This document shows, in pieces, positions 675 through 30,164 of a DNA stretch of 32,027 nt. Within the stretch, counting starts at the first letter, position 1. Each line of letters starts with the position of its first letter. The notes under the pieces were generated by a model that was not told the origin of the DNA, ran no database searches, and saw nothing but the letters and a program-made list of their open reading frames with translations. The stretch lies in the NCBI GenBank assembly GCA_030018635.1, contig JASEHU010000001.1, positions 1 through 32,027 on the forward strand. Direction: 5' to 3'. The translations under genes and the position numbers were made by a program. The DNA is from a bacterium (GTDB taxonomy: Bacteria > UBA9089 > CG2-30-40-21 > SBAY01).

Positions 675-959
675 TTGGATAGGGTGGGTAAAGGAATAAG
701 AACATCCCCAAGAGATGCCTTAATAGCCGATTCTGTTGATAAAAAGGATTATGGTCAGGCATTTAGTTTTCAAAGGGCTTTAGACCATGCAGGTGCAGTT
801 TTTGGACCGGTAGTCGCCTTTGTTTTGCTCAATATATTTTTCTTAAATTTAAGGGTAGTCTTTGCCCTGCCAATAATTCCGGCGATTATAACTATTTTTA
901 TTTTAACATCCTTTCTAAACTTTTGTAAATTTTGTAGTTATTCACGGCTTGAAATTTGA
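675..959 (+). pseudogene. MFS-transporter fragment (TM2-TM3 loop region only)
   Basis: Contains DRVGKGIRTSPRDALIADS, an MFS loop motif, followed by two hydrophobic helices. The frame is open without a start codon back to about 474. The 3' end runs into the palindromic element and stops there. At 94 aa it is far too short for an MFS protein. Confidence 0.5.
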
Positions 960-1127
960 AATTGGAAAATAGAAATTAGAAATTAGGAAAAGACGAGGAG
1001 AATCGTATCTCTTTCCCCCAATTTCTAATTTCTAATTTCAATGTTCGGTGAACGGCTATATTTAATGAAAAGTGCTATTTTACTATGTTTCTACAAAATT
1101 TGCAAAAGTTCAGATCCTTTGTTAAAG
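901..1127. repeat. Long imperfect palindromic element with gaaatta heptad arms (core hairpin 951-1040)
   Basis: Left arm gaaatttgaaattggaaaatagaaattagaaattagg faces right arm ccccaatttctaatttctaatttc. The outer arms are also inverted: cttttgtaaattttgtag at 919-936 versus ctacaaaatttgcaaaag at 1091-1108. This is why ORFs on both strands end in LNFCKFC. Confidence 0.75.
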
Positions 1128-1319: not shown

Positions 1320-4157
1320 ATGGACTCAAAGGATTTTATATTTATCAAAGGGGCACGAGAACATAATCTAAAAAATATCGATGTCCAGATACCGCGAAAT
1401 AAATTGGTCGTCATTACCGGTTTGTCAGGCTCGGGTAAGTCCTCGTTAGCCTTTGATACCATCTATGCCGAGGGTCAAAGACGATATGTCGAATCGTTAT
1501 CTGCCTATGCTCGCCAGTTTTTAGGTCAGATGGAAAAACCGGATGTGGATTATATCGAAGGACTATCCCCGGCTATCGCCATCGAACAACGAACCGCCAG
1601 TAAGAATCCACGCTCTACTGTTGGCACTGCAACCGAGATATATGATTACCTCCGCCTTATGTTTGCCAGAATTGGTCAACCCCATTGCTATAAATGTGGG
1701 AAACCGCTAACCAAACAAACCGTAGATGAGATAGTCAACCAGTTAATGAATCTTCCGGAGAAGACCCGCATCCAGATCCTTGCCCCAATAGTTCGTGGTC
1801 GAAAAGGTGAGTATCAAGAAATCCTTTCAACTATTCGCAAGGAAGGATTTGTCCGGGCAAGGGTAGATAAAAAAGTCTATGCCCTGGAAGAAGAAATCAA
1901 ACTCGATAAAAACAAAAAACATAATATTGAGGTGGTGGTCGATAGACTTGTCTTGAAAGCTGAACGAGGTAGATTGGCTGACTCAATTGAGACAGCATTT
2001 AAACTATCAACAGGGATAGTCTTTATTGAGGTAGATGAGAAAGAGGATTTAATCTTTTCAGCCGAATTGGCCTGCCTGTATTGTGGGATTAGCTATGAGG
2101 AAATCTCGCCCCGGATGTTTTCCTTTAACAGCCCTTATGGCGCCTGCCCTACCTGTAAGGGATTAGGGGTTAAATTAGAAATCGACCCTGAATTAGTCGT
2201 GCCAAATAAAAATTTAAGTGTCTATAATGGGGCAATTAGACCCTGGGGTATCCCCTGGGAGGGATTACAACGGATATTAGAACGATTGGCCAGACGATAT
2301 AATTTTAGATTGGATGTCCCATTTAAAGACCTGAAAAAGGAACATCAACAACTCTTGCTTTATGGGACACAAGGGGAATATTATCGGACTCGATACAAGA
2401 CGCAATATTTTGGGGAATATGAAGGGGTAATCCCTGCCTTAGAACGGCGATTCAAAGAGACAGATTCAGAGATGTCCCGTGATGAGATTTCAGAATTTAT
2501 GACCAAACAATATTGCCCTACCTGCGACGGTGCCAGATTGAAAAAGGAAAGTTTAGCGGTCATAATTCAGGATATGTCCATTGGCCAGGTGAGTAAATTA
2601 TCCATTAAAAAGGCCTATGAGTTCTTCCAGAATTTAAAATTAACCGAAAAAGAGACACTCATTGCTCATCAAATCCTGAAAGAGCTCAAAAGGCGATTAG
2701 AATTTTTAATCAATGTAGGTGTTGACTACCTGACCTTAGACCGTGCCGCTGGGACATTAGCCGGAGGAGAGGCTCAACGAATTCAATTAGCTACACAAAT
2801 CGGCTCTGGATTGATGGGCGTGCTTTATATCTTAGATGAGCCGAGTATTGGATTACATCAGCGGGATAATAAAAGACTTTTAGATACCTTATGTTGTCTG
2901 CGGGATTTAGGCAATACCCTGATTGTGGTTGAGCATGATGAGGCAACGATTAGAATGGCTGACTATGTGCTTGATTTAGGGCCCGGTGCAGGAGAAAAGG
3001 GGGGATTTATCGTTGCTCAAGGCACACCGTCAGAAATTATTGATAATAATGATTCTCTAACCGGTAAATATTTAAAGGGGGATCTAAGGATTCCTATCCC
3101 TAAAAATCGGCTTAAACCAAAATCAAAATTTATCGAGGTTCGGGGAGCGGCAGAACATAATTTAAAAAATATCAATGTCAAAATTCCCATTGGGCTTTTG
3201 ACCTGTATTACCGGCGTCTCAGGCTCTGGGAAAAGCACACTGATTAGTGAGATTTTATATCCTGCCTTGCGTCAACACCTTTTAAGAAGTCATGCTAAAC
3301 CGGGCAAACATAAAGGGATTGTGGGATTAAATCATTTAGATAAGGTCATTAATATTGACCAGTCCCCCATCGGTCGCACCCCACGGTCCAATCCAACTAC
3401 TTATACCGGGACATTTACCCATATTCGGGATTTTTTTTCTTTATTTCCAGAGGCAAAGATGCGGGGATATAAACCCGGCAGGTTTAGTTTTAATGTCAAG
3501 GGTGGCCGATGTGAGGCCTGCCAGGGGGATGGCATTATTAAGATAGAGATGCACTTTTTACCCGATGTCTATATTCCTTGTGAGGTATGCAAGGGTAAAA
3601 GATACAACCGCGAAACCCTGGAGATAAAATATAAAGGTAAAAATATCGCTGATGTTTTGGATATGACTGTAGATGAGGCATCAGGTTTTTTTGCCAATAT
3701 ACCGCTTATTAAACGAAAATTAGAGACGATATCAGATGTAGGCCTGGGCTATATTAAACTTGGTCAGTCGGCAACTACCCTGTCAGGTGGAGAGGCACAA
3801 CGGATAAAATTATCGGCGGAATTAAGTAAGCGGGCTACCGGCAAAACACTCTATCTTTTAGATGAACCAACAACAGGCTTACACTTTGCCGATATTCATA
3901 AATTATTAGATGTCCTGATGCGGCTGCGGGATGCAGGCAATACCATTGTGATTATCGAGCATAATTTAGATGTCATCAAGACCGCAGATTATATTATTGA
4001 TTTAGGTCCTGAAGGTGGGGATGCAGGGGGTGAAATAGTGGCTGTAGGCTCACCTGAGGAGGTATCGAGGAATAAAAACTCCTATACAGGGCAAATTTTA
4101 GCCTCAGACCTGTCCGATAAGTCTGACATCTCTGACAAAGAAAGGGAAAAACCATGA
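1320..4157 (+). CDS. uvrA: Excinuclease ABC subunit A
   Basis: 945-aa ORF with two Walker A motifs ([18 protein letters not shown]) and two [11 protein letters not shown] signatures. Zinc-finger Cys pairs are present ([25 protein letters not shown]). A low-complexity C-terminal tail ([17 protein letters not shown]) follows. Confidence 0.97.
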
Positions 4158-4172
4158 ACCACCAGAATAACT

Positions 4173-5063
4173 TTATGGATTAGGTATATTCACCAAATCT
4201 GACCTGGGCACTATTCTTTCCATTATTCTATCCAAATCTTCCAATGAATAAAATTCGATTTCTATCTTCCCTCCTCCTTTTGCATCCTGCCTAATTCTGA
4301 TCTTAGTCCCCAGCACCCGCATTAAATCTTCTTCGCAGGCAACAAGCATGACATCTGGTTCACTCACTTGTGATGTTTCACGTGAAACATCTACTTGAGG
4401 TGATACCTCCTTTTTCATTCGCTTGACCAATGATTCAACCTCGCGAACAGAGAGTCCTTTTTTAATAACCCGTTCGCAAGTCTCTAGTTGTTGAACCTCG
4501 GATTCTAAACTCAATATTGCCCGAGCATGTCCCATCGAGAGACTCCCGTTTGAAATCTGCTCCTGAATTTTAATGGGTAATTTTAATAATCGCAGGGTGT
4601 TTGTTACAGAGGTGCGGTCTTTACCTACCTCCTTGGCTAAATTCTCCTGGGTTAAACCAAACTCCCGAATCAACCTTTGATATGCATCTGCCTCTTCCAT
4701 AGGATTCAAATCCTCTCGTTGAATATTTTCAATCAAGGCAATCTCTAATGCCTCACTGTCAACTACATCCTTGACTACCGCCGGGATACGGTCTAATCCA
4801 ATTGACCTTGCCGCCTGAAGCCTTCGCTCACCAGCAATTAATTCATACCCTTCTTTAGACGGTCTTAATAAAATCGGCTGAATTACCCCTTTCTCCCTGA
4901 TTGAATCGGCCAACTCTTTCTGCTTCTCCGGGTCGAAATATCGCCTCGGTTGATAACGACTTACCTGAATCTCCGAAATCTTTACCTCCCGAATATTCTC
5001 CCCTTCTGATTTAACCTCCGGCAATAATGCCTCTAACCCTTTACCTAAAGCTATCCTTTGCAT
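4173..5063 (-). CDS. parB: Chromosome partitioning protein ParB/Spo0J
   Basis: 296-aa ORF with ParB-box motifs (LIAGERRLQAA, IENIQREDLNPMEEA) and the HTH segment LTQENLAKEVGKDRTSVTNTLRLLKL. Confidence 0.93.
   Translation of the reverse strand: MQRIALGKGLEALLPEVKSEGENIREVKISEIQVSRYQPRRYFDPEKQKELADSIREKGVIQPILLRPSKEGYELIAGERRLQAARSIGLDRIPAVVKDVVDSEALEIALIENIQREDLNPMEEADAYQRLIREFGLTQENLAKEVGKDRTSVTNTLRLLKLPIKIQEQISNGSLSMGHARAILSLESEVQQLETCERVIKKGLSVREVESLVKRMKKEVSPQVDVSRETSQVSEPDVMLVACEEDLMRVLGTKIRIRQDAKGGGKIEIEFYSLEDLDRIMERIVPRSDLVNIPNP
4374..4389. promoter_or_regulatory. parS centromere-like site inside parB
   Basis: TGTTTCACGTGAAACA is an exact match to the Firmicutes-type parS consensus as I recall it. 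It sits in a 20-bp perfect palindrome, gatgtttcacgtgaaacatc (4372-4391), and encodes DVSRETS of ParB. Confidence 0.85.
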
Positions 5064-12578: not shown

Positions 12579-12813
12579 GTGAGCAAGGAGCAAGGTTTTT
12601 CGTAAGCGTTCAGGTAAAATGTAGAATGTAGAATATTGAATGTAGAATGTAAAAGGAAGGCAGGAAAAATAGTAAAACTTCATAATTCTACATTCTACAT
12701 TCTACATTCAATATTCTACATTCAAGGTGAATTTCCGTTTGCACAGGTCGAGGTTTTTGCTTCAATTCTTCACCTTGATCCTCGTTCCTTGTTCCTTCCA
12801 CTGAGGAACAAGG
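12579..12813. repeat. Nested long hairpin complex between plsX and fabH (atgtaga heptad arms inside gagcaagg arms)
   Basis: Inner arms are aatgtagaatgtagaatattgaatgtagaatgt (12618-12650) and attctacattctacattctacattcaatattctacatt (12685-12722). Outer arms are gtgagcaaggagcaagg (12579-12595) and ccttgatcctcgttccttgttcc (about 12773-12797). A separate perfect 9-bp hairpin, ccttgttcc/ggaacaagg, lies at 12787-12813. Confidence 0.8.
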
Positions 12814-12855
12814 ACATAGGAGAGATCTGACACCTAACGCTGACAAAGGAAAATA

Positions 12856-17481: not shown

Positions 17482-17493
17482 AGAAGAAATTTT

Positions 17494-17648
17494 GGAATGG
17501 TTCACTTTAATTTGAAAGATTGCGGTTAAAAGATGGAGTTGGAAATTAGAAATTAGAAATTAGGTTTACAAGTCTCTCCCCAATTTCTAATTTCCAATTT
17601 CCAATTTCTAAAAGAAATCATAGTAAAAACGATAAAATGAACCGTCCC
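17494..17648. repeat. Complete palindromic element: TIR-like ends, 45-nt module and gaaatta heptad hairpin
   Basis: Left end ggaatggttcac (17494-17505) matches right end atgaaccgtccc (17637-17648) as an inverted pair. The core arms are ggaaattagaaattagaaattagg and ccccaatttctaatttccaatttccaatttct. The left flank is the reverse complement of the module found at 21905 and 24841. Confidence 0.8.
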
Positions 17649-17702
17649 GAAATTTTAAGGATAGGAAGAGTAGAGTAAAAATCAAGGAGGTGAAGAAAAA
17701 AA

Positions 17703-17939
17703 ATGGCAGAATCAGTATTTGAGAGAGTACAGAAGATTATTATAGATCAACTGGGAGTGAACGAGGGCCAGGTAGTCGCTGAGGCATCATTTGTTGATGA
17801 TTTGGGGGCAGATTCCCTGGATACCGTGGAGTTGGTTATGTCTTTTGAGGAGGAATTCGGGATAGAAATCCCAGATGAGGATGCAGAAAAGATACGCACT
17901 ATCGATAATGCTGTAACCTATATTGAGGAGCATAGTTAA
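17703..17939 (+). CDS. acpP: Acyl carrier protein
   Basis: 78-aa ORF with the phosphopantetheine attachment motif [24 protein letters not shown] lies upstream. Confidence 0.96.
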
Positions 17940-19210
17940 TGAAGAGGCTTGCCTCGTTGTTGAATATTAAAAATCGGGTAGTAGTTACAGGGATGGGGGT
18001 AGTTACGCCTATTGGAGTTGGCAAAGAGAAATTCTGGGAAGGTTTGGTCCGTGGCGAAAATGGTATTGGACCGATAACTTTATTTCCGGTAGATGATTAT
18101 GATTGCCGGATTGCAGGTGAGGTCAAGGATTTTGACCCCAGCCTCTACATGGATAAAAAAGAGGTGCGGCGTAGCGATAGATTTTGTCACCTGGCTATTG
18201 CCGCCGCTAAATTAGCTGTTGAAGATGCTAAGATTGACTTGCCTGGTAATGAAAACCCTGGCAATATAGGTGTTTATATCGGCTCAGGTATTGGTGGATT
18301 ATCAACAATCGAGCGTGAATATAAGGTTTTATTAGAAAAGGGACCAGGCAGGGTAAGCCCATTTGTTATCCCAAGTCTAATTATCGATATTGCCTCAGGA
18401 ATGGTTGCCATTCAATATGGTGCCAAAGGACCTAATTCTGCAGTCGTAACTGCTTGTGCCACCGGTGCTAATGCTATTGGTGATGCCTTTAGAATTATAG
18501 AAAGAGGCGAGGCAGAGGTGATGATAACTGGTGGGACAGAGGCCGCTATTACCCAGTTAGGTTTATCAGGTTTCTCAAATATGAAGGCACTTTCTACACG
18601 AAATGATGACCCCAAACATGCCTCCAGGCCATTTGATAAACTCCGTGATGGATTTATTATGGCTGAAGGGGCGGGGATAATTATCTTAGAATCACTTCCG
18701 CATGCTCAAGCAAGAAAAGCCCATATTTATGCCGAAATTGTTGGTTATGGGTTGTCCGGCGATGCCTACCATATTACTGCCCCTGCCCCTAATGGAGAAG
18801 GGGCAAGTCGGGCCATGCAGCGGGCATTACAAGGTGCTGGATTATCCCCAAAACAAATCGATTACATCAATGCCCATGGAACCTCTACTCAACTGAATGA
18901 TAAATGTGAAACTCAAGCCATTAAAACTGTTTTTGGTGAATATGCCTATTCTATTCCTATCAGCTCGACTAAGTCTATGACAGGACATATGTTGGGTGCG
19001 GCCGGTGCCGTAGAATTTATCGTCTGTTGCCTAACTATTGAAAAAGGAGTTGTTCATCCTACGATAAATTATGAATATGAAGACCCTGAGTGTGATTTAG
19101 ATTATGTGCCAAATCAGGCCAGAAGTCATGAGGTTAAAATTGCCTTATCTAATTCGCTGGGCTTTGGGGGACATAATGTCAGTTTGATAGTTAAAAAGTA
19201 TGAAGATTAA
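17939..19210 (+). CDS. fabF: 3-oxoacyl-ACP synthase II
   Basis: 423-aa ORF carrying the active-site contexts ACATGA (Cys), HGTSTQLND and GHMLGAAG (His), plus the GFGGHN C-terminal motif. Confidence 0.95.
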
Positions 19211-19304
19211 TTAAAAGTTAAAAGTTAAAAGTTAAAAGTTGAGGAAAGAGGAAAGAATTTATGATTTTCAATTCCTATATTTTTTCCTTTCTTAACTTTT
19301 AATT
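19211..19304. repeat. Intergenic hairpin with aaaagtt / gaggaaa heptad arms
   Basis: Left arm is (ttaaaag)x4 followed by ttgaggaaagaggaaagaat. Right arm is attcctatattttttcctttcttaacttttaatt. It starts immediately after the fabF stop. Confidence 0.8.
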
Positions 19305-19325
19305 ATACAAGGAGTATAAAGATTA

Positions 19326-20060
19326 ATGAATGAGACTCGAATTCAACAACTTAACGAAATGCAATCTGCCCTTAGTCTGGAATTTAAAAACATTGATTTG
19401 TTAAATCAGTCCTTGACCCATACATCTTATGCCTACGAATTAAGTAGTGACCGTAATAATGGCGGTATATTGCAGAATGAAAGAATGGAATTTCTTGGCG
19501 ATGTAGTTTTAGGTCTTATCGTCAGTGAGTATATTTACCAGAAATATCCTGATTATATGGAAGGGGATTTAGCTAAGATTCGGGCTAAGGTAGTTAGCCG
19601 ACCGATATTGGCCAAGCGGGCTAAACATTTAGAACTGGGTAAGTATCTACTTCTGGGTAAAGGCGAAGAGATAACAGAAGGAAGACACAGGCATTCTATT
19701 TTAGCCGATACTATGGAAGCCCTAATTGGTGCAATTTATTTAGATTCCGGCTTAGAAAAATCCCGCTATTTTATTTTAGCCCAATTTGAAGAAGAAATCG
19801 AAAAAATCACTGATAATGTTCATGTGCAGGATTATAAAACCGATTTTCAGGAATGGACCCAAAAGAAATTTAAAACCCTTCCTTTTTATAAGGTGATTAA
19901 TAGAGAGGGGCCTGACCATGAGCGAATTTTCGAGATAGCAGTTATGGTCAAAGGGGAAACATATGGCATAGGAAAGGGCGGAAGTAAAAAGGAGGCAGAA
20001 CAAAGAGCGGCTTACTTCGCCTTGCAACATGCAAAGGAAAGAGTGAAGAGTGAAAAGTGA
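19326..20060 (+). CDS. rnc: Ribonuclease III
   Basis: 244-aa ORF with the RNase III signature NERMEFLGDVVLG and a C-terminal dsRNA-binding domain (GPDHERIFEI...GSKKEAEQRAA). The last codons are encoded by the gagtgaa repeat. Confidence 0.95.
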   Translation: MNETRIQQLNEMQSALSLEFKNIDLLNQSLTHTSYAYELSSDRNNGGILQNERMEFLGDVVLGLIVSEYIYQKYPDYMEGDLAKIRAKVVSRPILAKRAKHLELGKYLLLGKGEEITEGRHRHSILADTMEALIGAIYLDSGLEKSRYFILAQFEEEIEKITDNVHVQDYKTDFQEWTQKKFKTLPFYKVINREGPDHERIFEIAVMVKGETYGIGKGGSKKEAEQRAAYFALQHAKERVKSEK

Positions 20061-20125
20061 AGAGTGAAGAGTGAAAAACTAAAAACTAATAATTTTCCAC
20101 TATTCACTATTCACTATTCACTTTT
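20037..20125. repeat. Hairpin with gagtgaa / cactatt heptad arms that overlaps the rnc 3' end
   Basis: Left arm is gagtgaagagtgaaaagtgaagagtgaagagtgaaaa. Right arm is ccactattcactattcactattcactttt. There is one periodic mismatch per heptad. Confidence 0.8.
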
Positions 20126-20142
20126 AAAAGGGGGAGACTAAA

Positions 20143-21297
20143 ATGAATTATTTTTTGACGGAAGAACAAGTTATGATTCGGGATTTAGCCCGACAGATAG
20201 CTGATGAAGTGATTAGACCCACAGCAGCCAAATTGGATGAGGAGGAAAAATTCCCATACGAAATAATGAAGACATTGGCCAATGCCGATTTGTTTGGTGT
20301 CTATATTCCGGAGGAATATGGTGGGCTGGGATTTGGCTGTTTTGAGTTATGCCTGGCGGTAGAGGAATTGAGTAAGGCGTGTGGTGGTGTAACAACTACT
20401 TATGCCGCCTCGGCCCTGGGGACATTTCCCATACTTTTATTTGGTAACGAGGCACAAAAGCAGAAATACCTGCCTGATGTAGCCAGGGGAACAAAATTAG
20501 CCGCCTTTGGACTAACCGAGGCTGATGCCGGCAGTGATGCCTCCGGCATACAAACTACCGCAGTTTCAGACGGTGATTACTACATCCTTAACGGCACAAA
20601 ACAATGGATTACCAATGGTGGTGAGGCGGAAATCTATGTGATTATTGCTATGACGGATAAAAACAAAGGGTCACGAGGGGCATCGGCAATTATTGTGGAA
20701 AAAGGAACACCTGGCTTTACCTTTGGTAAAAAAGAAAAAAAAATGGGTATCCGCTGTTCGGCTACGACGGAGTTAATCTTCCAGGATTGCCGGGTGCCGA
20801 AAGAAAATTTGTTAGCCAGAGAGGGATTTGGATTTATCGTTACCATGAAAACCCTTGACCGTGCCAGACCGGGCGTAGCCGCTCAATCCGTAGGTATTGC
20901 TCAAGGGTCATTGGATTTAGCGGTTAAATATGCGAAAGAGCGGGTTCAATTCGGCAAACCAATATCCTCATTTCAGGGGATACAATTTATGTTAGCCGAT
21001 TGCGCTACTCAAATAGAGGCGGCCAGGGCACTTACTTATTCTGTGGCTAGAATGATTGATGCCGGAGAAAAGGATATTTCAAAGGAGTCTGCGATGAGTA
21101 AACTTTTTGCCTCAGATGTGGCTATGAAGGTAACAACCGATGTTGTCCAGATATTTGGTGGTTATGGCTATATGCGGGAATACCCGGTTGAGAAGATGAT
21201 GCGTGATGCCAAAATCACACAAATCTATGAAGGAACTAACCAAATTCAACGCCATGTAATTGCCCTTGGATTAATCAAAGAATCCGGCTCTAATTAA
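20143..21297 (+). CDS. Acyl-CoA dehydrogenase (short/butyryl-CoA type)
   Basis: 384-aa ORF with the GLTEADAGSDASG, QIFGGYGY and IYEGTNQIQR motifs, the last including the catalytic Glu context. Confidence 0.9.
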   Translation: MNYFLTEEQVMIRDLARQIADEVIRPTAAKLDEEEKFPYEIMKTLANADLFGVYIPEEYGGLGFGCFELCLAVEELSKACGGVTTTYAASALGTFPILLFGNEAQKQKYLPDVARGTKLAAFGLTEADAGSDASGIQTTAVSDGDYYILNGTKQWITNGGEAEIYVIIAMTDKNKGSRGASAIIVEKGTPGFTFGKKEKKMGIRCSATTELIFQDCRVPKENLLAREGFGFIVTMKTLDRARPGVAAQSVGIAQGSLDLAVKYAKERVQFGKPISSFQGIQFMLADCATQIEAARALTYSVARMIDAGEKDISKESAMSKLFASDVAMKVTTDVVQIFGGYGYMREYPVEKMMRDAKITQIYEGTNQIQRHVIALGLIKESGSN

Positions 21298-21343
21298 AAG
21301 TTTTCTCAAATATAGGTCCTATAAGACTTATTATTTCAAAGGG

Positions 21344-21784
21344 GTGATGAAAATGAAGGGTTTAAAGGTAAAGGATGTTATGACGCGCGGGGTGATTACC
21401 ATTCCACAAGATGCCTCAGTCAGAGAGGCAGTGGAAATATTGGCGGATAACGATGTTAGTGGCTTAGCTGTTACTTCTGACGAAGGAGAATTGATTGGAG
21501 TCCTGTCTGAAACCGATATGGCCAGGGTAGTGAGTGAAAATATGGAAAGTGAAGAGGATTTGGGTAAGATAAGGGTTAGCGAGGTAATGGCTGCCCCAGC
21601 TATCACGGTCAATAGAGAAGATGATTTGAGAGAGGCCTGCCGGATAATGTATAGAAATAATATCCACCGATTGATAGTCCAACAGGAGGTAAAAAGGGGT
21701 GAACAAACTAAGTATTTCCCCAGTGGGATACTTTCTATTTCTGATATAGTCAAGGTATTAGCAGGCAGGAAATTACATGGATAA
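21344..21784 (+). CDS. CBS-domain pair protein
   Basis: 146-aa ORF with two CBS repeats (VKDVMTRGVITI... and VSEVMAAPAITV...HRLIV). Confidence 0.85.
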   Translation: MMKMKGLKVKDVMTRGVITIPQDASVREAVEILADNDVSGLAVTSDEGELIGVLSETDMARVVSENMESEEDLGKIRVSEVMAAPAITVNREDDLREACRIMYRNNIHRLIVQQEVKRGEQTKYFPSGILSISDIVKVLAGRKLHG

Positions 21785-21823
21785 ATTTGAGGTTAAAGAA
21801 AAAAATGTCACAAGACTGATGAT

Positions 21824-21850
21824 GTGCCTAATGTTTCGGCACACCATTTT
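21824..21850 (+). terminator. Weak candidate intrinsic terminator after the CBS gene
   Basis: gtgcc-taatgtttc-ggcac followed by accatttt. The stem is only 5 bp. Confidence 0.3.
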
Positions 21851-21904
21851 GCTACTACCGAAATAGAAAGTAGTAACCCCAATCTTCCCTTTTAAATTCT
21901 ATCC

Positions 21905-21949
21905 TCCATCTTTTAACCGCAATCTTTCAAACTAAAGTGAACCATCCCC
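21905..21949. repeat. Solo copy of the conserved ~45-nt module
   Basis: tccatcttttaaccgcaatctttcaaactaaagtgaaccatcccc is near-identical to 24841-24884 and to the reverse complement of 17494-17538. It is preceded by a degenerate pyrimidine arm (ccccaatcttccctttt) with no purine arm. Confidence 0.75.
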
Positions 21950-22044
21950 AAAAGTCCAGATTAATAATGGTTATAGAATCCAAGTTCCAATAGGGACGAC
22001 ATATTTATAGCAAGAATAATCTTCCCCTATGCCGAACTAACCCT

Positions 22045-22464
22045 TTATTGAATCTCGACTATTCTTGAAATTAATTTTCTTTTTAACCGATTTTTGGACA
22101 AATAAACTAATAAATAGGTTATGCCGGCTAATATCAGCCCGGAGGCAATGCCTATTAACTCTCCTGCCTTCTGGGAAAATCCATACCTGTTTGCCCAATA
22201 AATACCGCCTCCTATCCCACAAACAAGGGCAATAGTAGGCATGACAAAAAAGAGAATAGACCCTGTTATTCTCATGTAGGCTAAGGTTTGGAGTCTTACC
22301 TTTTGCCCTACCGAAGCCCCGATAGAGTTATCTGCCTCTAACAGTATCTTTCCCTCCTGAGTATCACATTTGTGCGAACAGTGCTCACATCTTTGTTGTC
22401 CTGCCTCAATCTGAACAGTAGCTTTGTTTCCCGCTATTGTTAGAACAATTCCCTCCTCTTCCAT
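22045..22464 (-). CDS. RseC/MucC-family (SoxR-reducing system) small membrane protein
   Basis: 139-aa ORF. The N-terminal beta-rich segment GIVLTIAGNKATVQIEAGQQRCEHCSHKC is followed by two hydrophobic helices, matching the family architecture as I recall it. Confidence 0.65.
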   Translation of the reverse strand: MEEEGIVLTIAGNKATVQIEAGQQRCEHCSHKCDTQEGKILLEADNSIGASVGQKVRLQTLAYMRITGSILFFVMPTIALVCGIGGGIYWANRYGFSQKAGELIGIASGLILAGITYLLVYLSKNRLKRKLISRIVEIQ

Positions 22465-22500
22465 ATTTTACTCCTTTGATTGCACAGGAAATTGTATTTA

Positions 22501-22581
22501 CCACGAAGGCACAAAGGCACGAAGAATTCTTTTGAATCTTCCATAAAATAATCTTTTCTTTGTGTCTTCGTGTCTTTGTGG
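22501..22581. repeat. Hairpin with cacgaagg/cacaaagg 8-nt arms
   Basis: ccacgaaggcacaaaggcacgaag faces ctttgtgtcttcgtgtctttgtgg. Confidence 0.8.
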
Positions 22582-22583
22582 TA

Positions 22584-22675
22584 GTAACCGCTCAGTGAAC
22601 GGTGGAAAGATGAAGTTGAGAGGATGAGAAGGTAAGAGGATAAGATAATCTTTCCCCCGACAACTGAGCGATTAC
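22584..22675. repeat. Palindromic element with gtaaccgctcag...TIR-like ends; pyrimidine arm largely missing
   Basis: Left end gtaaccgctcagtgaacggtgg faces right end cccccgacaactgagcgattac. The interior is a purine-rich repeat (gatgaagttgagaggatgagaaggtaagaggataag) with only ggaaagat/atctttcc pairing. Confidence 0.7.
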
Positions 22676-22683
22676 CACATGTT

Positions 22684-22831
22684 GTAACCGCTCAATAATT
22701 GGTGTAAAAAGTTGAGATTAGGTGGAGATAAAGTTGAGATTAGGTGGAGATTGGTAAAAAAAACAATAAATCTCTACCTGATCTCCACCCATCTCTACCA
22801 ATCTCTACCCCACCGTTAACTGAGCAGTTAC
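22684..22831. repeat. Palindromic element with gtaaccgctca...TIR-like ends and 22-nt tandem arms
   Basis: Left end gtaaccgctcaataattggtg faces right end caccgttaactgagcagttac. The arms are (gttgagattaggtggagat)x2 and atctccacccatctctaccaatctctacc. Confidence 0.8.
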
Positions 22832-22862
22832 AGGCAGCATGATTTTACCCACAAATTTTACA

Positions 22863-22947
22863 CGCACCCTTGGAGTGCGAAGGCTTGCCTTCGCTTTCAG
22901 CTAACGCAGTAACAAGTAAGTACGTCTGCTTGCCTACCGCACTCCAA
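22863..22947. other. GC-rich structured element with mutually exclusive stems (unclassified)
   Basis: Three pairings are possible: a long-range stem ttggagtgcg (22870-22879) with cgcactccaa (22938-22947); a perfect 7-bp hairpin gcgaagg-cttg-ccttcgc (22877-22894); and cgcac (22863-22867) with gtgcg (22875-22879). All three use nucleotides 22875-22879. Confidence 0.35.
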
Positions 22948-22967
22948 ATTGCAAAGAAAACTTTTGT

Positions 22968-23657
22968 TTAGAAATGGAATCTTGGTCCAAATCTAATCAG
23001 AAACCCACTCAGGTCTATCTCAGATGGGTCTCCTACCTTCTCACCTGCCCATTTCAAATCATCAATCTTAGCACAAAGATAGGTAATATCACCACCGAGA
23101 GTGAGTATTTTAGCGATTTTATATCCTCCTTCGATAAATAATTGGTAGCCAACGGTATCCCCTTCCATCCAGTAAAACTTCTGGGGGTCTTTACTGGTTT
23201 TATTAACCGAGGCTAGTTCAGCACATACTCCAAACAACCCTAACCCACCACCTACGGCTAAATCCCATTTATCACTCGGTAATTTTTCTTTGGGAATTTT
23301 GTAGGAGACAAGTATTCCATGGTAGCCACCGTAAAGACAAGCCACATTAGCTGCAGTCCCGACTGTCTTTTCTTTTGCACCATAAATCCCACCGCCATTG
23401 TAACCAATCTGCCAGTTAGGATTAATTTGCCAGCGAAGTGTCCCACCATTAAAGCCCAAATCCTTAATACCATCAAGTCCTAATTCTTTCTTGATGTAGT
23501 CATTGAACCTGGACATATCGGGATAGTAAATACCTATCTGTGGTCCTCCACCAAAGCCACCAACCGGACTTTCGTCTTCCTCCATATTCCCGGCTTTTAC
23601 CGATGTTGTCACCATAAGAAGCACTCCAACCACTATTAACGCTAATACCTTCCACAT
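22968..23657 (-). CDS. Small outer-membrane beta-barrel protein
   Basis: 229-aa ORF with a signal peptide (MWKVLALIVVGVLLMVTTSVKA). The body is Gly/Tyr-rich with alternating hydrophobicity. The C-terminus RFGPRFHF ends in Phe, a typical OMP sorting signal. Confidence 0.7.
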   Translation of the reverse strand: MWKVLALIVVGVLLMVTTSVKAGNMEEDESPVGGFGGGPQIGIYYPDMSRFNDYIKKELGLDGIKDLGFNGGTLRWQINPNWQIGYNGGGIYGAKEKTVGTAANVACLYGGYHGILVSYKIPKEKLPSDKWDLAVGGGLGLFGVCAELASVNKTSKDPQKFYWMEGDTVGYQLFIEGGYKIAKILTLGGDITYLCAKIDDLKWAGEKVGDPSEIDLSGFLIRFGPRFHF

Positions 23658-23674
23658 TTTTTATCACCTCCTTT

Positions 23675-23728
23675 GAGATTTTGGATTTTAGATTTTGGAT
23701 TGAGAAAAGATTTCAATCCGCAATCCCC
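23675..23728. repeat. Hairpin with gattttg heptad arm
   Basis: gagattttggattttagattttggattgag faces caatccgcaatcccc. It lies directly upstream of the OMP gene RBS. Confidence 0.65.
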
Positions 23729-23887
23729 AACTATATTTATTAAGTAAGCAAATCTTATGCCAGGACAGGTTGAATCTTTTATATCCATAGTATTTATGAG
23801 GAATCAGGTGATTTTAATAAGTTTTAAACATGGGATTAGCTGTCAGTTTTTTATGACAGAAATAGGTAGGAAGTGTCATTTTTATAA

Positions 23888-24009
23888 GTGAATAGTGAAT
23901 AGTGAATAGTGAATAGTGAATAGGAAATAGGAAATAGCTAATATTTCCTCTTCATTCTTCACTATTCACTATTCACTTTTCACTATTAACTATTCACTTT
24001 TCACTTTTC
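23888..24009. repeat. Hairpin with gtgaata / ggaaata heptad arms that overlaps the 3' end of the DUF3108-like gene
   Basis: Left arm is (gtgaata)x5 followed by (ggaaata)x2. Right arm is tttcctcttcattcttcactattcactattcacttttcactattaactattcacttttcactttt. Confidence 0.8.
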
Positions 24010-24728
24010 TTACACAAATAGGCGCTCAATAATCCTGCCTCAGTTTTTACCGCAATCTTAACCGGAGTATGTGTTTTATCGGTAGCAAACCAAATAACAA
24101 TATCTGTCTCTGCACCAACTTGTTTGGCCATTAGGGCTGTAAAATTCCCATAAGGTGTGGTCATCTTTTCTTCTTTAACTATCGCTACCTTAACCTGTTC
24201 TGTTCCAGACCTGGTTAATAGATTAAAATTATATAAATTCCCAACCTTCAACTCTTGATTTCTCAAATAATAGATTAAAGAAAGCGAATCTAAGGTATTG
24301 GCGGTAATATTTATCTCTTTAGTTTCTTGATTTTGTTTATTGAAGATGGTCGCCTTTTTATTGGTTTGGTTCACTGAAAATTCATAGTGTCTACGATATT
24401 TTCCTCTATCAATATCCGTTATTGTCCGCACTGGAAGTAGATTTGAGGTTCTTACCCAACTATCTATTTGTTCTGACAGGTAATAAAATTTTGAAAAAAA
24501 AGGATTGGTTTTAATCTCTGATTTGAGGTGATAGGTTTCCTCTGTATTTATTATCTCTTTCCCGAGCACCTGGTCTATTTGAGTTCCTATTTTAAACCCT
24601 AATAGTCGAACCTCGTAAGTAAATTTTTCACCTACACAAACAAAATCTTCCTGGGCAAAAACAATAGGAGTAATTAAAATAAATATGCTTATCAAAAATA
24701 TTCTTATACCGGAATGATTTATTTTCAT
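23994..24728 (-). CDS. DUF3108-like secreted/periplasmic protein
   Basis: 244-aa ORF with a signal peptide. GEKFTYEVRLLGFKIG near the N-terminus, DSLSLIYYLRNQELKVG in the middle and a VIWFATDKTHTPVKI C-terminal motif match my recollection of DUF3108. Confidence 0.6.
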   Translation of the reverse strand: MKINHSGIRIFLISIFILITPIVFAQEDFVCVGEKFTYEVRLLGFKIGTQIDQVLGKEIINTEETYHLKSEIKTNPFFSKFYYLSEQIDSWVRTSNLLPVRTITDIDRGKYRRHYEFSVNQTNKKATIFNKQNQETKEINITANTLDSLSLIYYLRNQELKVGNLYNFNLLTRSGTEQVKVAIVKEEKMTTPYGNFTALMAKQVGAETDIVIWFATDKTHTPVKIAVKTEAGLLSAYLCKKSEK

Positions 24729-24754
24729 CGTCTCTCCTGTGATTTTAAAATACT

Positions 24755-24884
24755 GAAATTAGAAATTGGAAATTAGAAAACAGGACTTCTCGTTTCCTCT
24801 CTCTCCCCACAGTTTCTAATTTCCAATTTCTAATTTCAACTCCATCTTTTACCCGCAATCTTTCACACTAAAGTGAACCATCCC
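24755..24884. repeat. gaaatta heptad hairpin plus right-hand 45-nt module
   Basis: Left arm gaaattagaaattggaaattagaaaa faces right arm ccccacagtttctaatttccaatttctaatttc. The module tccatcttttacccgcaatctttcacactaaagtgaaccatccc follows. Confidence 0.8.
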
Positions 24885-28716: not shown

Positions 28717-28885
28717 AACAACTCCTTTTTTATAGAATGGTAATGTCAAAAGTTTTACTGCAATTTTTTTCTAAGTCGCGATGATTAAAGAGGTTATTTA
28801 TCCTTTAGCCTCCTCCCCCCATTTGACCATAAGTTTACCGTCTTACCCACTCCAAGATATATCTAACCTTCTCCTCTAAAGGGTA

Positions 28886-29003
28886 AAATACCTTTCAGAG
28901 GACATACCTTGTATGTGGTCTGAAGGGCGCTCAGGTCGCTCTTCAGCGTTGCCCTATCCTCCCTTCAGAGGACAAAGATAGACTAATACATACCTTGGTG
29001 TGG
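28886..29003 (-). other. GC-enriched structured/direct-repeat element in the leader of the DUF2339-like gene (unclassified)
   Basis: A 9-bp stem tctgaaggg (28919-28927) pairs with cccttcaga (28961-28969). Alternative inner stems are agggc/gccct and cgct-cttc-agcg. The direct repeat ccYttcagaggaca...taccttgKtgtgg occurs at 28891-28918 and 28961-29003. Confidence 0.3.
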
Positions 29004-29036
29004 AAAAAAGCGATAAACTTTTCTTTCATATTTCTT

Positions 29037-30164
29037 TCATACTATTTTTGACACTACCTTATTATAACATTTATGGTATAATTTTTCAAGAGAAATTTTG
29101 GAAGGGCTCTTTTTCCCCAATACATAAACTTTATGAGCAATCTTTTTATTTTTAAATAAGAATTCCCATCTTAATCTTATTTTTAAATAGATGCAGACTA
29201 AATATGCAATAATAGGAATTCTCAGGAGTAACATTTTATTCTTATCTCTTGTAACTTGCTGCAAGTTTAATCTTGATTTCAATGAATTAATATATCCATA
29301 ATTTATTATTTCATACCCATTCTCTTCTATAATATCAATGAATTTATTTAGTTCTATCCCATCCTCATTGGATGAACTGTCTTTATTTAATGCAATGAAT
29401 AAATTACCCTCCCCATACCTCTTTTTAACCTCCTTTTGTATATGTTCTACGGTTATCTTTTCATAAATATCTGTTAAAGAAGTTGTCTCAATTTTATACT
29501 CATCTTCAAGTTTTAATTCGGTAATCTGTATAACGTTTTCATGCTCCTTTAATTTTTTGATAAGGAGGAGTCCTATCAGGTGAACTACATCTTCTAACTT
29601 CTTATCGATCTTAATTCCATAAAATTTAGCTAACCTATATACATTTATACCTGTAGATTCCAGTGAAGATCTTCTAATCTTAGGAAGCTTACACCCACTC
29701 TTATCTACTGCTCCACATTTGGTTAGATGGAGCAAGCATGGCCCAGCAATGAAACCTTGAACTTCATATCCATCCTTTTTAGCTATTCCTTCCAGTTTTA
29801 ATACCATTCTATGAAGTTTTCTTACATATTTTCGGACAAAGATTAACTGTAAGAAGAAAGCTATAAACGGTATCTTCATTAGACGAGGAGGAATGTCTTT
29901 TATACGGAGAACAAGCATTATTCCTAGTTCATAATCACTAATAATCTTTTTTGTCTTTTCTATTTTCCAGGAATAAGGAGGGCATGAATAGCAGTTATTA
30001 AAAGAATCACAGAGCTTACACGCATTTTTCACTCGCTGCTCTACCTGGATATCTTTTGTTCTTATAACTATTCCTTTACAAAATCCTTCTCTTTCTATTA
30101 TATCTATAAGTTCTGAAATATAGTCAAAAATATCATTCTTATATTTTAACTTGAATTGTTTCAT
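29037..30164 (-). CDS. DUF2284-like Cys-rich metal-binding protein with a degenerate internal duplication
   Basis: 375-aa AT-rich ORF. CKLCDSFNNCYSCPP and AGPCLLHLTKCGAVDKSGCKLPKIRRSSLESTGINVY resemble DUF2284. The second half repeats ELIDIIEREGF as KFIDIIEENGY, and KIPFIAFFLQLIFVRKY as RIPIIAYLVCIYLKIRL, but lacks the cysteines. Confidence 0.5.
   Translation of the reverse strand: MKQFKLKYKNDIFDYISELIDIIEREGFCKGIVIRTKDIQVEQRVKNACKLCDSFNNCYSCPPYSWKIEKTKKIISDYELGIMLVLRIKDIPPRLMKIPFIAFFLQLIFVRKYVRKLHRMVLKLEGIAKKDGYEVQGFIAGPCLLHLTKCGAVDKSGCKLPKIRRSSLESTGINVYRLAKFYGIKIDKKLEDVVHLIGLLLIKKLKEHENVIQITELKLEDEYKIETTSLTDIYEKITVEHIQKEVKKRYGEGNLFIALNKDSSSNEDGIELNKFIDIIEENGYEIINYGYINSLKSRLNLQQVTRDKNKMLLLRIPIIAYLVCIYLKIRLRWEFLFKNKKIAHKVYVLGKKSPSKISLEKLYHKCYNKVVSKIV

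Follow-up and report, generated by a model that had tools for sequence, protein, structure and literature searches.

The stretch of DNA analysed here (hereafter the window) comprises positions 1 to 32,027 of contig JASEHU010000001.1 of assembly GCA_030018635.1, a Candidatus Desantisbacteria draft genome of 2.40 Mb in 441 contigs, with a G+C content of 37.5% and a completeness of 89%. The window carries many hairpins, and one of them, in the spacer between fabG and acpP, is accompanied by a conserved module of ~45 nt and by inverted ends. An original prediction, made from the letters of the window, proposed that a subset of its hairpins, with this module and with ends like terminal inverted repeats (TIRs), had a mobile origin similar to that of miniature transposable elements with inverted repeats (MITEs) or of REPINs, the doublets of repetitive extragenic palindromic (REP) sequences. 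Two families are distinguished here: family 1 consists of the elements with GGGAYGGTTCAY ends, to which the module belongs, and family 2 of the GTAACCGCTCAGT elements. The genome is designated G000 and the window's contig C111; other C numbers are contigs, G001 to G017 are the compared genomes, and L numbers are metagenomic or public loci.

Structure, copy number and insertion sites of family 1

As predicted, the family-1 module occurs three times in the window, at 17497-17538 on the minus strand and at 21906-21947 and 24842-24883 on the plus strand; dinucleotide shuffles gave an expectation of 0 matches to its 24-nt core, even with up to 3 mismatches allowed. The first occurrence belongs to the fabG-acpP element, which is indeed complete with inverted ends, is bordered by a perfect 8-bp direct repeat, and folds into a single rod (-45 kcal/mol, z -5.9). 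The second, described beforehand as a solo half near 21905-21949, is a truncated right end (21906-21948). The third, which had been placed at 24841-24884 beside a gaaatta hairpin, is there as described, and is the right end of an entire, decayed element that begins at 24711.

The general layout of family 1 is a left end GGGACGGTTCAT, a left module, a hairpin of GAAATTA heptads, and a right module that ends in GTGAACCATCCC. The copy count that had been proposed was made with iterated nhmmer searches, which found many copies in G000: 68 right modules (62 at E < 1e-8) and 59 left ends. The conserved left end, GGGACGGTTCATTTTATCGTTTTTMCTRTGATTTCTTTT, lies ~150-190 nt upstream of the right module, and the heptad hairpin precedes nearly every right module. 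Complete elements, in which a left and a right end are paired, number 39 and measure 147-210 nt (median 172); the family-1 miniatures contain no open reading frame (ORF). Many of the unpaired ends are located at contig ends, from which it follows that the hairpins break the assembly. The TIRs (GGGACGGTTCAT versus GGGATGGTTCAC) are ~16 nt long and are kept across the copies; they are imperfect (GGGAYGGTTCAYTTTA), and a weaker inverted similarity, clearer in a relative, extends over ~40 nt. Similarity among the anchored copies ends abruptly past ...GTGAACCATCCC, and the outer boundary of the left end is equally sharp. Each loop class is found both ways round relative to the element ends, and therefore the heptad arms also drive inversion and module exchange; examples of such flip/flop pairs are C277:11003-11157 versus C127:1751-1920 and C333:9989-10176 versus C428:6284-6452. 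Family 1 is present in 18 of the 24 other genomes of the phylum and in 0 of 16 genomes outside it. Exact 12-nt family-1 ends number 214 in G002 and 208 in G017, and a reversed control pattern gave 0-1.

The flanks of the complete copies carry the record of their insertion. A perfect 8-bp target-site duplication borders 21 of the 39, and 26 match at 7 or more of the 8 positions; random re-pairing of the flanks gave, at this latter threshold, 1.0 on average and never more than 5, and the other lengths tested, from 4 to 10 bp, gave at most one perfect match each (one at 7 bp). The duplications whose search had been suggested are thus present, at 8 bp and at no other length. The target consensus, (A/G)AAATTTC, is 76% A+T and resembles the heptad unit. 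Insertion is typically a few bases past a stop codon or into another hairpin element's loop; several copies are lodged within other hairpin elements, and in G003 a 703-nt copy has further elements nested in its hairpin. On C192 a family-1 element is bordered twice by TAAATCTC, whereas the uninterrupted paralogues of its host on C230 and C77 (96-97% identical), which are relatives of the family-2 element at 22684-22831, have TAAATCTC once and therefore provide a clean paralogous empty site.

The comparison of strains that had been recommended gave a similar picture. The fabG-acpP spacer contains a family-1 element in G000 only; in the same-genus genome G001, whose flanking genes are 92-93% identical to those of G000, and in G002 it contains other short hairpins. 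The homology to G001 also stops exactly at 24711, the left boundary of the decayed copy. Public sequencing runs contained at most 8% of the words sampled.

TIRs, a duplication of fixed length, some 60 copies, nested insertions, an empty site, and presence or absence between congeners all agree with the MITE-like mobile origin originally proposed; a module confined to the window's loci, or flanks devoid of consistent boundaries and duplications, had been named as evidence to the contrary, and what was found is a dispersed family with sharp boundaries and 8-bp duplications. We conclude, with a probability of about 0.85 that leaves aside the identity of the transposase, that family 1 is a family of MITEs and that its members are cut-down derivatives of a cassette carrying a PF05635 gene. 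The 45-nt module would be the right subterminal end of non-autonomous transposons of the cut-and-paste type, for which we infer a DDE mechanism: a transposase acting in trans would bind the ends and insert the element into an AT-rich 8-bp target, with duplication of that target. Family 1 is ordinary in kind and new as a family.

The PF05635 cassette and the orientation of the copies

PF05635 is the protein of 23S rRNA intervening sequences (IVSs; the S23p protein), a four-helix bundle. It is matched 11 times in G000, 11-39 times in each of five relatives from the same family, and in 1 of 14 control genomes. Each PF05635 gene examined is bracketed by inverted arrays of a private 7-8-nt unit (GTGAGCA on C366, CTAAAGA on C277, a CACCAG-type unit on C229, and GAATGTA on C115 and C237). 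An overlap of exactly 55 nt connects contigs C237 and C209, which, when joined, give a 503-bp cassette in which GGGACGGTTCAT and the left module are followed by a GAAATTA arm, a 118-aa PF05635 ORF on the opposite strand, a second arm, and a right module ending in CCATCCC. The ORF (PF05635 E 1.4e-20) is the only protein encoded and has a ribosome-binding site, GGGGGGAG, ahead of its ATG; the flanks of the cassette, TTCATATA and CTCATATA, form a 7/8 duplication. Five class-C MITEs were aligned, from about ten that have this loop. Otherwise collinear with the cassette, they have one deletion of ~330 nt in common, and their loop still contains the gene's first codons. The single common junction means that the deletion occurred once and that the miniature was then amplified. 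A cassette of ~500 bp, with family-1 ends and with heptad arms bracketing a ribosome-binding site and a PF05635 gene, is the ancestor from which internal deletion removed the gene.

Some observations detract from this argument. The cassette has been joined from two contigs, and most PF05635 genes have heptad arms and no recognisable TIR shell, so that the unit of hairpin and gene may also spread by another route. The restriction of the original prediction to a subset of the hairpins was accordingly apt, since only part of the hairpin elements moves with family-1 ends. The same gene as that of the cassette (91-93% nucleotide identity) is found in G011 and G002 between other end modules.

The copies are strongly oriented with respect to the genes around them. 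In tandem-gene contexts 31 right modules are antisense to the flanking genes and 4 are sense (p 3.5e-6), and contexts with only one flanking gene called divide 16 to 1; the orientation thus favoured is that in which the lost cassette gene would read in the sense direction. Read in the disfavoured orientation, 38 of 39 copies have a T-run of 4-7 within 20 nt past the hairpin; read in the favoured one, none has. A reversed copy, with its T-run right after the hairpin, would resemble a terminator, and copies survive almost exclusively where the direction of the former gene is parallel to host transcription. From the distribution of the T-runs we infer that selection against a terminator-like configuration within operons causes the bias; an insertion bias may also be the cause. 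Caution about terminators is suggested by the stems, which are rich in A+T and greatly exceed classical terminators in length. Gene strand and GC skew are tightly linked in the genome, with replication and transcription not separable as the cause of the bias. The bias offers a simple system for the study of how a genome tolerates insertions in essential operons such as fab.

Family 2 and the candidate transposases of family 1

The neighbouring elements at 22584-22675 and at 22684-22831 have the predicted ends, GTAACCGCTCA.. and ..TGAGCrrTTAC, and belong to family 2, whose ends, GTAAYCSCTCAGT, occur 96 times per strand in G000. Among 33 simple pairs of these ends, 7 have perfect 8-bp flank matches, and there is one chance match at 2 bp. 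At C262:1154-1505 two family-2 elements are 8 bp apart and the same 8-mer lies to the left, in the middle, and to the right (7/8), which indicates that a second element went into the target that the first had duplicated; the gap between the two elements of the window (22676-22683) is also 8 bp, but there the 8-mers differ. Fragments of IS66 DDE transposase genes are found in G000 on C119 and C255. The start of C255 holds an IS66-family transposase fragment followed by a terminus, ...CAACCGATAACTGAGGGATTAC, and these 55 nt are also the start of C47 and of C81, where the flanks differ; the IS66 element is therefore multi-copy. This terminus matches the GTAATCCCTCAGTTATCAGTTG subfamily of family 2 at 21 of 22 positions, and in G008:C86 a 522-aa IS66-like ORF lies between GTAACTACTCAGG repeats, a TIR that is common to family 2. 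Because the resident IS66 terminus and the G008:C86 repeats both match it, family 2 consists of MITEs of a resident IS66-family insertion sequence. Family 2 and the element at 12.6 kb of the window begin with GTAA; on C115, an intact PF05635 gene has the GAATGTA heptad of the latter and a GTAACCGTTCAGGT end at its flanks. At C119:3803 and C119:4408 an IS66-type terminus, GTAACCGTTCACAGGGGTGTTAGC.., is seen twice in direct orientation, the second time inside an IS66 DDE frame at the contig end, through nesting of one copy in another or as an artefact of the graph.

Family 1 has a less visible partner. The original prediction saw no transposase in the window, and eight transposase-family searches of the whole of G000 are consistent with this, none having a match on C111. 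Searches of G000 for IS1595, ISL3 and IS256 found none; its resident transposase loci have other inverted repeats or none; self-BLAST of the assembly revealed no multi-copy element of insertion-sequence size; and no long pair of family-1 ends in G000 has a duplication. Across the phylum, GGGAYGGTTCAY ends were found at none of the ISKra4-like, IS1595, IS256, ISL3 and IS66 loci retrieved, nor at the DDE_Tnp_1 loci retrieved from the family. Individual candidates were also rejected: the IS6-like element of C297 ends in GGTAATGTCAAAAAC, the ends of the IS1380-like C429 and IS1182-like C380 elements differ from those of family 1, and the ISKra4-like element at G017:C422 has different TIRs, GGGTGCAGATACTCTCAGCT. 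Three long pairs of family-1 ends in relatives proved not to bound an autonomous element: G003:C105 (703 nt) is a MITE into which others have nested, G002:C40 (2.1 kb) is a pair of MITEs around cstA, and G017:C178 (968 nt) is a pair of MITEs around a nucleotidyltransferase gene.

Our best guess for the mover of family 1 is an IS66-family enzyme, a tentative attribution to which we give rather less than an even chance. It is suggested by the TIR, which agrees with the IS66-like terminus GTAACCGTTCAC (also seen at C119) at 9 of 12 positions, the GTTCAC core included, and by the equal length of the duplication, since the ISBst12-like single-ORF group of the IS66 family makes 8-bp duplications, as in both families here. 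Among the paired termini counted at 80 metagenomic IS66/ISBst12-like loci, GTAACCGTTCAC occurs 69 times and GTAGCCGTTCAC 22 times, and perfect 8-bp duplications border four of these elements (L149, L166, L179, and L190). Several facts pull the other way. Family 1 begins with GGGA instead of GTAA, and no IS66-like element with a GGGA terminus was found; its outermost GGG stands against GTA at all 80 IS66-like loci, whose termini, as far as examined, never vary at position 2; an autonomous element with GGGAYGGTTCAY ends was found neither in G000, nor in 24 relatives, nor at the 80 metagenomic loci; and G002, which has >100 copies, lacks an IS66 DDE match, although absence from a draft metagenome-assembled genome (MAG) is weak evidence.

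These comparisons also bear on the GTGAAC/GTTCAC core, which had been thought to link all types of end. The link stands to the extent that a widespread IS66/ISBst12-like clade has GTAACCGTTCAC as its conserved terminus and that an IS66 partner of family 2 is resident in the genome; for family 1, with 9/12 identity and no partner found, it is incomplete. Nor is the core universal: the left end of the 22684 element, GTAACCGCTCAATAATTGG, is without GTGAAC, and the sequence cggtgaacggc at 1046-1056, offered as a further instance, is part of a different repeat with inverted arms at 902-937 and 1091-1126.

Other readings, related systems and neighbouring repeats

Abundant, intergenic and hairpin-rich sequences with a strong orientation relative to genes could also be REPIN- or REP-like elements, moved by a REP-associated tyrosine transposase (RAYT, of the IS200/IS605 Y1 type) acting on single-stranded hairpins, and the RAYT-dependent REP doublets do share with family 1 their character of abundant intergenic palindromic repeats. 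Y1 transposases and REPINs, however, make no target duplications, whereas family 1 has both a fixed 8-bp duplication and TIRs, neither of them a product of Y1 transposases. REPINs also need a RAYT gene, and the proposed search of G000 for a RAYT or an IS200/IS605 TnpA gave, in a genome that is 89% complete, a single PF01797 (Y1 transposase) match of 21.1 bits that is below the Pfam cut-off and has 3 stop codons. The REPIN-like half of the original prediction therefore did not survive, and we consider it extremely improbable. The orientation bias, together with the very stable rod fold (z -5.9) and the sites directly past stop codons inside operons, would also suit RNA elements selected by the host as RNase III processing sites, transcript stabilisers or terminators, and spread by recombination instead of transposition. 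We hold this to be highly unlikely, since the exact duplications of 8 bp, the nesting of insertions and the empty site are marks of transposition; no Rfam family reached its threshold, and the only sub-threshold matches were to plant and animal miRNA-like hairpins. A function gained after insertion is compatible with the MITE explanation.

The mobile unit could also be the hairpin of heptads, alone or together with its PF05635 gene, and the GGGAYGGTTCAY modules a landing site that is conserved or a shell acquired secondarily, in which case the 8-bp repeats would mark movement of the shell in a minority of copies only. Such a unit would explain why most PF05635 genes have private heptad arms without a TIR shell, why the same gene lies between different end modules in G011 and G002, why loops point either way relative to the element ends, and why many hairpins of the window lack TIRs. 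The duplications, however, border the TIRs and not the hairpin; the class-C copies have their ends, arms and deletion junction in common, so that the shell was amplified whole; and in the relatives the same ends enclose different interiors. We judge this reading unlikely, and prefer that of MITEs derived from the cassette.

As MITEs, the family-1 elements resemble those described from other bacteria, such as the Correia elements of Neisseria and Chunjie of Geobacter uraniireducens (reviewed in PMC10969869): they are short and non-coding, have TIRs, a fixed-length duplication, tens of copies, size variants and truncated copies, and insert inside operons without breaking them. Family 1 has the size (under about 600 bp), TIRs, fixed-length duplication, and dispersed copies by which MITEs are recognised, and is without the autonomous partner, which is found for family 2 (the C255 terminus and G008:C86). 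It differs from known bacterial MITEs in its interior, which is a long tandem-heptad hairpin, and in its parent, which is the cassette of a small non-transposase gene and not an insertion sequence. In a review of prokaryotic MITEs from 2024 there is no mention of IS66 or of interiors of the hairpin type, and our literature search found no description of Desantisbacteria repeats. The genome of this candidate phylum has an unusual load of hairpins, part of which is explained as transposon debris and not as a structure designed by the host. In practical terms, the repeats break short-read assemblies, with many copies at contig ends, and annotators can mask them by two end signatures, GGGAYGGTTCAY and GTAAYCSCTCAG, accompanied in either case by an 8-bp duplication.

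The cassette has a second set of relatives. In the 23S rRNA IVSs of Coxiella burnetii and Leptospira a PF05635-type (S23p) ORF likewise lies inside a long, inverted-repeat, heptameric stem and tends to be lost (PMC4990558). In Coxiella the stem is cut by RNase III, the ORF is decaying, and tandem heptamers ahead of the start codon vary in number between strains; a transposon origin of IVSs was proposed long ago (PMC4990558). PF05635 is related to Avd of diversity-generating retroelements (PMC10053308). The IVSs occupy helix 25 or 45 of 23S rRNA, whereas the copies described here sit between protein genes, have TIRs and 8-bp duplications, and number in the tens. It is a speculative and, on balance, doubtful suggestion that the 23S rRNA IVSs have a free-living form that transposes, namely the PF05635 cassettes with their heptad arms, and that the IVSs are insertions of such elements into rDNA; the heptad stem would be an RNase III handle by which the element is cut out of any transcript, and the Avd-like protein may act in mobility or RNA handling and not be a passenger. 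If this were true, the RNase III handle would explain the tolerance of one orientation in operons, and nearly every intergenic hairpin here would be a relic. The TIRs, duplications and one-step deletion derivatives found here are direct evidence for the proposal, dating from the 1990s, that S23p-bearing IVSs have a transposable origin.

The features located in the window, and the arrayed PF05635 loci elsewhere in the genome, are collected in Table 1.

Table 1. Positions of the family-1 and family-2 elements in the window and of arrayed PF05635 loci in G000
Feature	Position	Strand	Remarks
Complete family-1 MITE, 155 nt, fabG-acpP spacer	17494-17648	-	inverted ends ggaatggttcac / atgaaccgtccc
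Right module of this copy	17494-17538		
GAAATTA-heptad hairpin of this copy	17539-17612		
Left module of this copy	17613-17648		
Target-site duplication, copy 1	17486-17493		GAAATTTT on + strand; identical to 17649-17656
Target-site duplication, copy 2	17649-17656		GAAATTTT; borders the 17494-17648 MITE
Complete but decayed family-1 MITE, 174 nt	24711-24884	+	left TIR GGAATGATTTAT, 3 mismatches; duplication gone
Solo family-1 right module, truncated copy	21906-21948	+	without hairpin or left end
Family-2 (IS66-type) MITE, 92 nt	22584-22675		ends GTAACCGCTCAGTGAACGGTGG / GTAATCGCTCAGTTGTCGGGGG
Family-2 MITE, 148 nt	22684-22831		GGTGGAGA/TCTCCACC hairpin; 8 bp from the 22584-22675 element
Further IS66-type MITE (probable)	12602-12844		GTAAGCGTTCAGGT ... 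ACCTAACGCTGAC around a GAATGTA-heptad hairpin; duplication gone
Arrayed PF05635 locus	C366:3150-3950		
Arrayed PF05635 locus	C277:7600-8420		
Arrayed PF05635 locus	C44:1-720		
Arrayed PF05635 locus	C229:1-760		

Other repeats were encountered in the course of this work. The inverted pair 902-937 / 1091-1126 of the window (902-1126; ..AACTTTTGYAAATTTTGTAG) encloses a GAAATTA hairpin at 949-1046 along with cggtgaacggc, and at C333:20225 the left part of a repeat of this type is joined to a family-1 right module, forming a module mosaic. A 320-nt repeat at 28739-29059 of the window starts with GTAATGTCAAAAGTTTTAC, like the left end GGTAATGTCAAAAAC of the single IS6-like element, on C297, from which it may derive; C186:2197-2517 holds a 93% copy of the repeat. 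At C139:3219-4236 a solitary family-1 left end with one heptad arm adjoins an HTH_17 and PIN pair (toxin-antitoxin-like), and the contig ends before the right end. On C392 a stretch of 2.57 kb is present head-to-tail twice (1-2569 and 2489-5056, 99.9% identity), as either a tandem duplication or an assembly artefact. The contig JBDRHR010000105.1 (L012), from a public MAG labelled Nitrospirota, is identical to G003:C105, and G003 is placed in the same family as G000; the label of that MAG is probably wrong. About 20 sites in G000 (C31:4422, C36, C49, C61, C87, C110, and others) have the inner ends GGGATTATTCAT..(TTGCAAA-heptad hairpin)..ATGAATTTATCC, and this element is set in a longer conserved repeat, tctaaaaaagtataaaaagg ... 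ggtggtgtccgtgaatagc, two copies of which adjoin tRNA genes.

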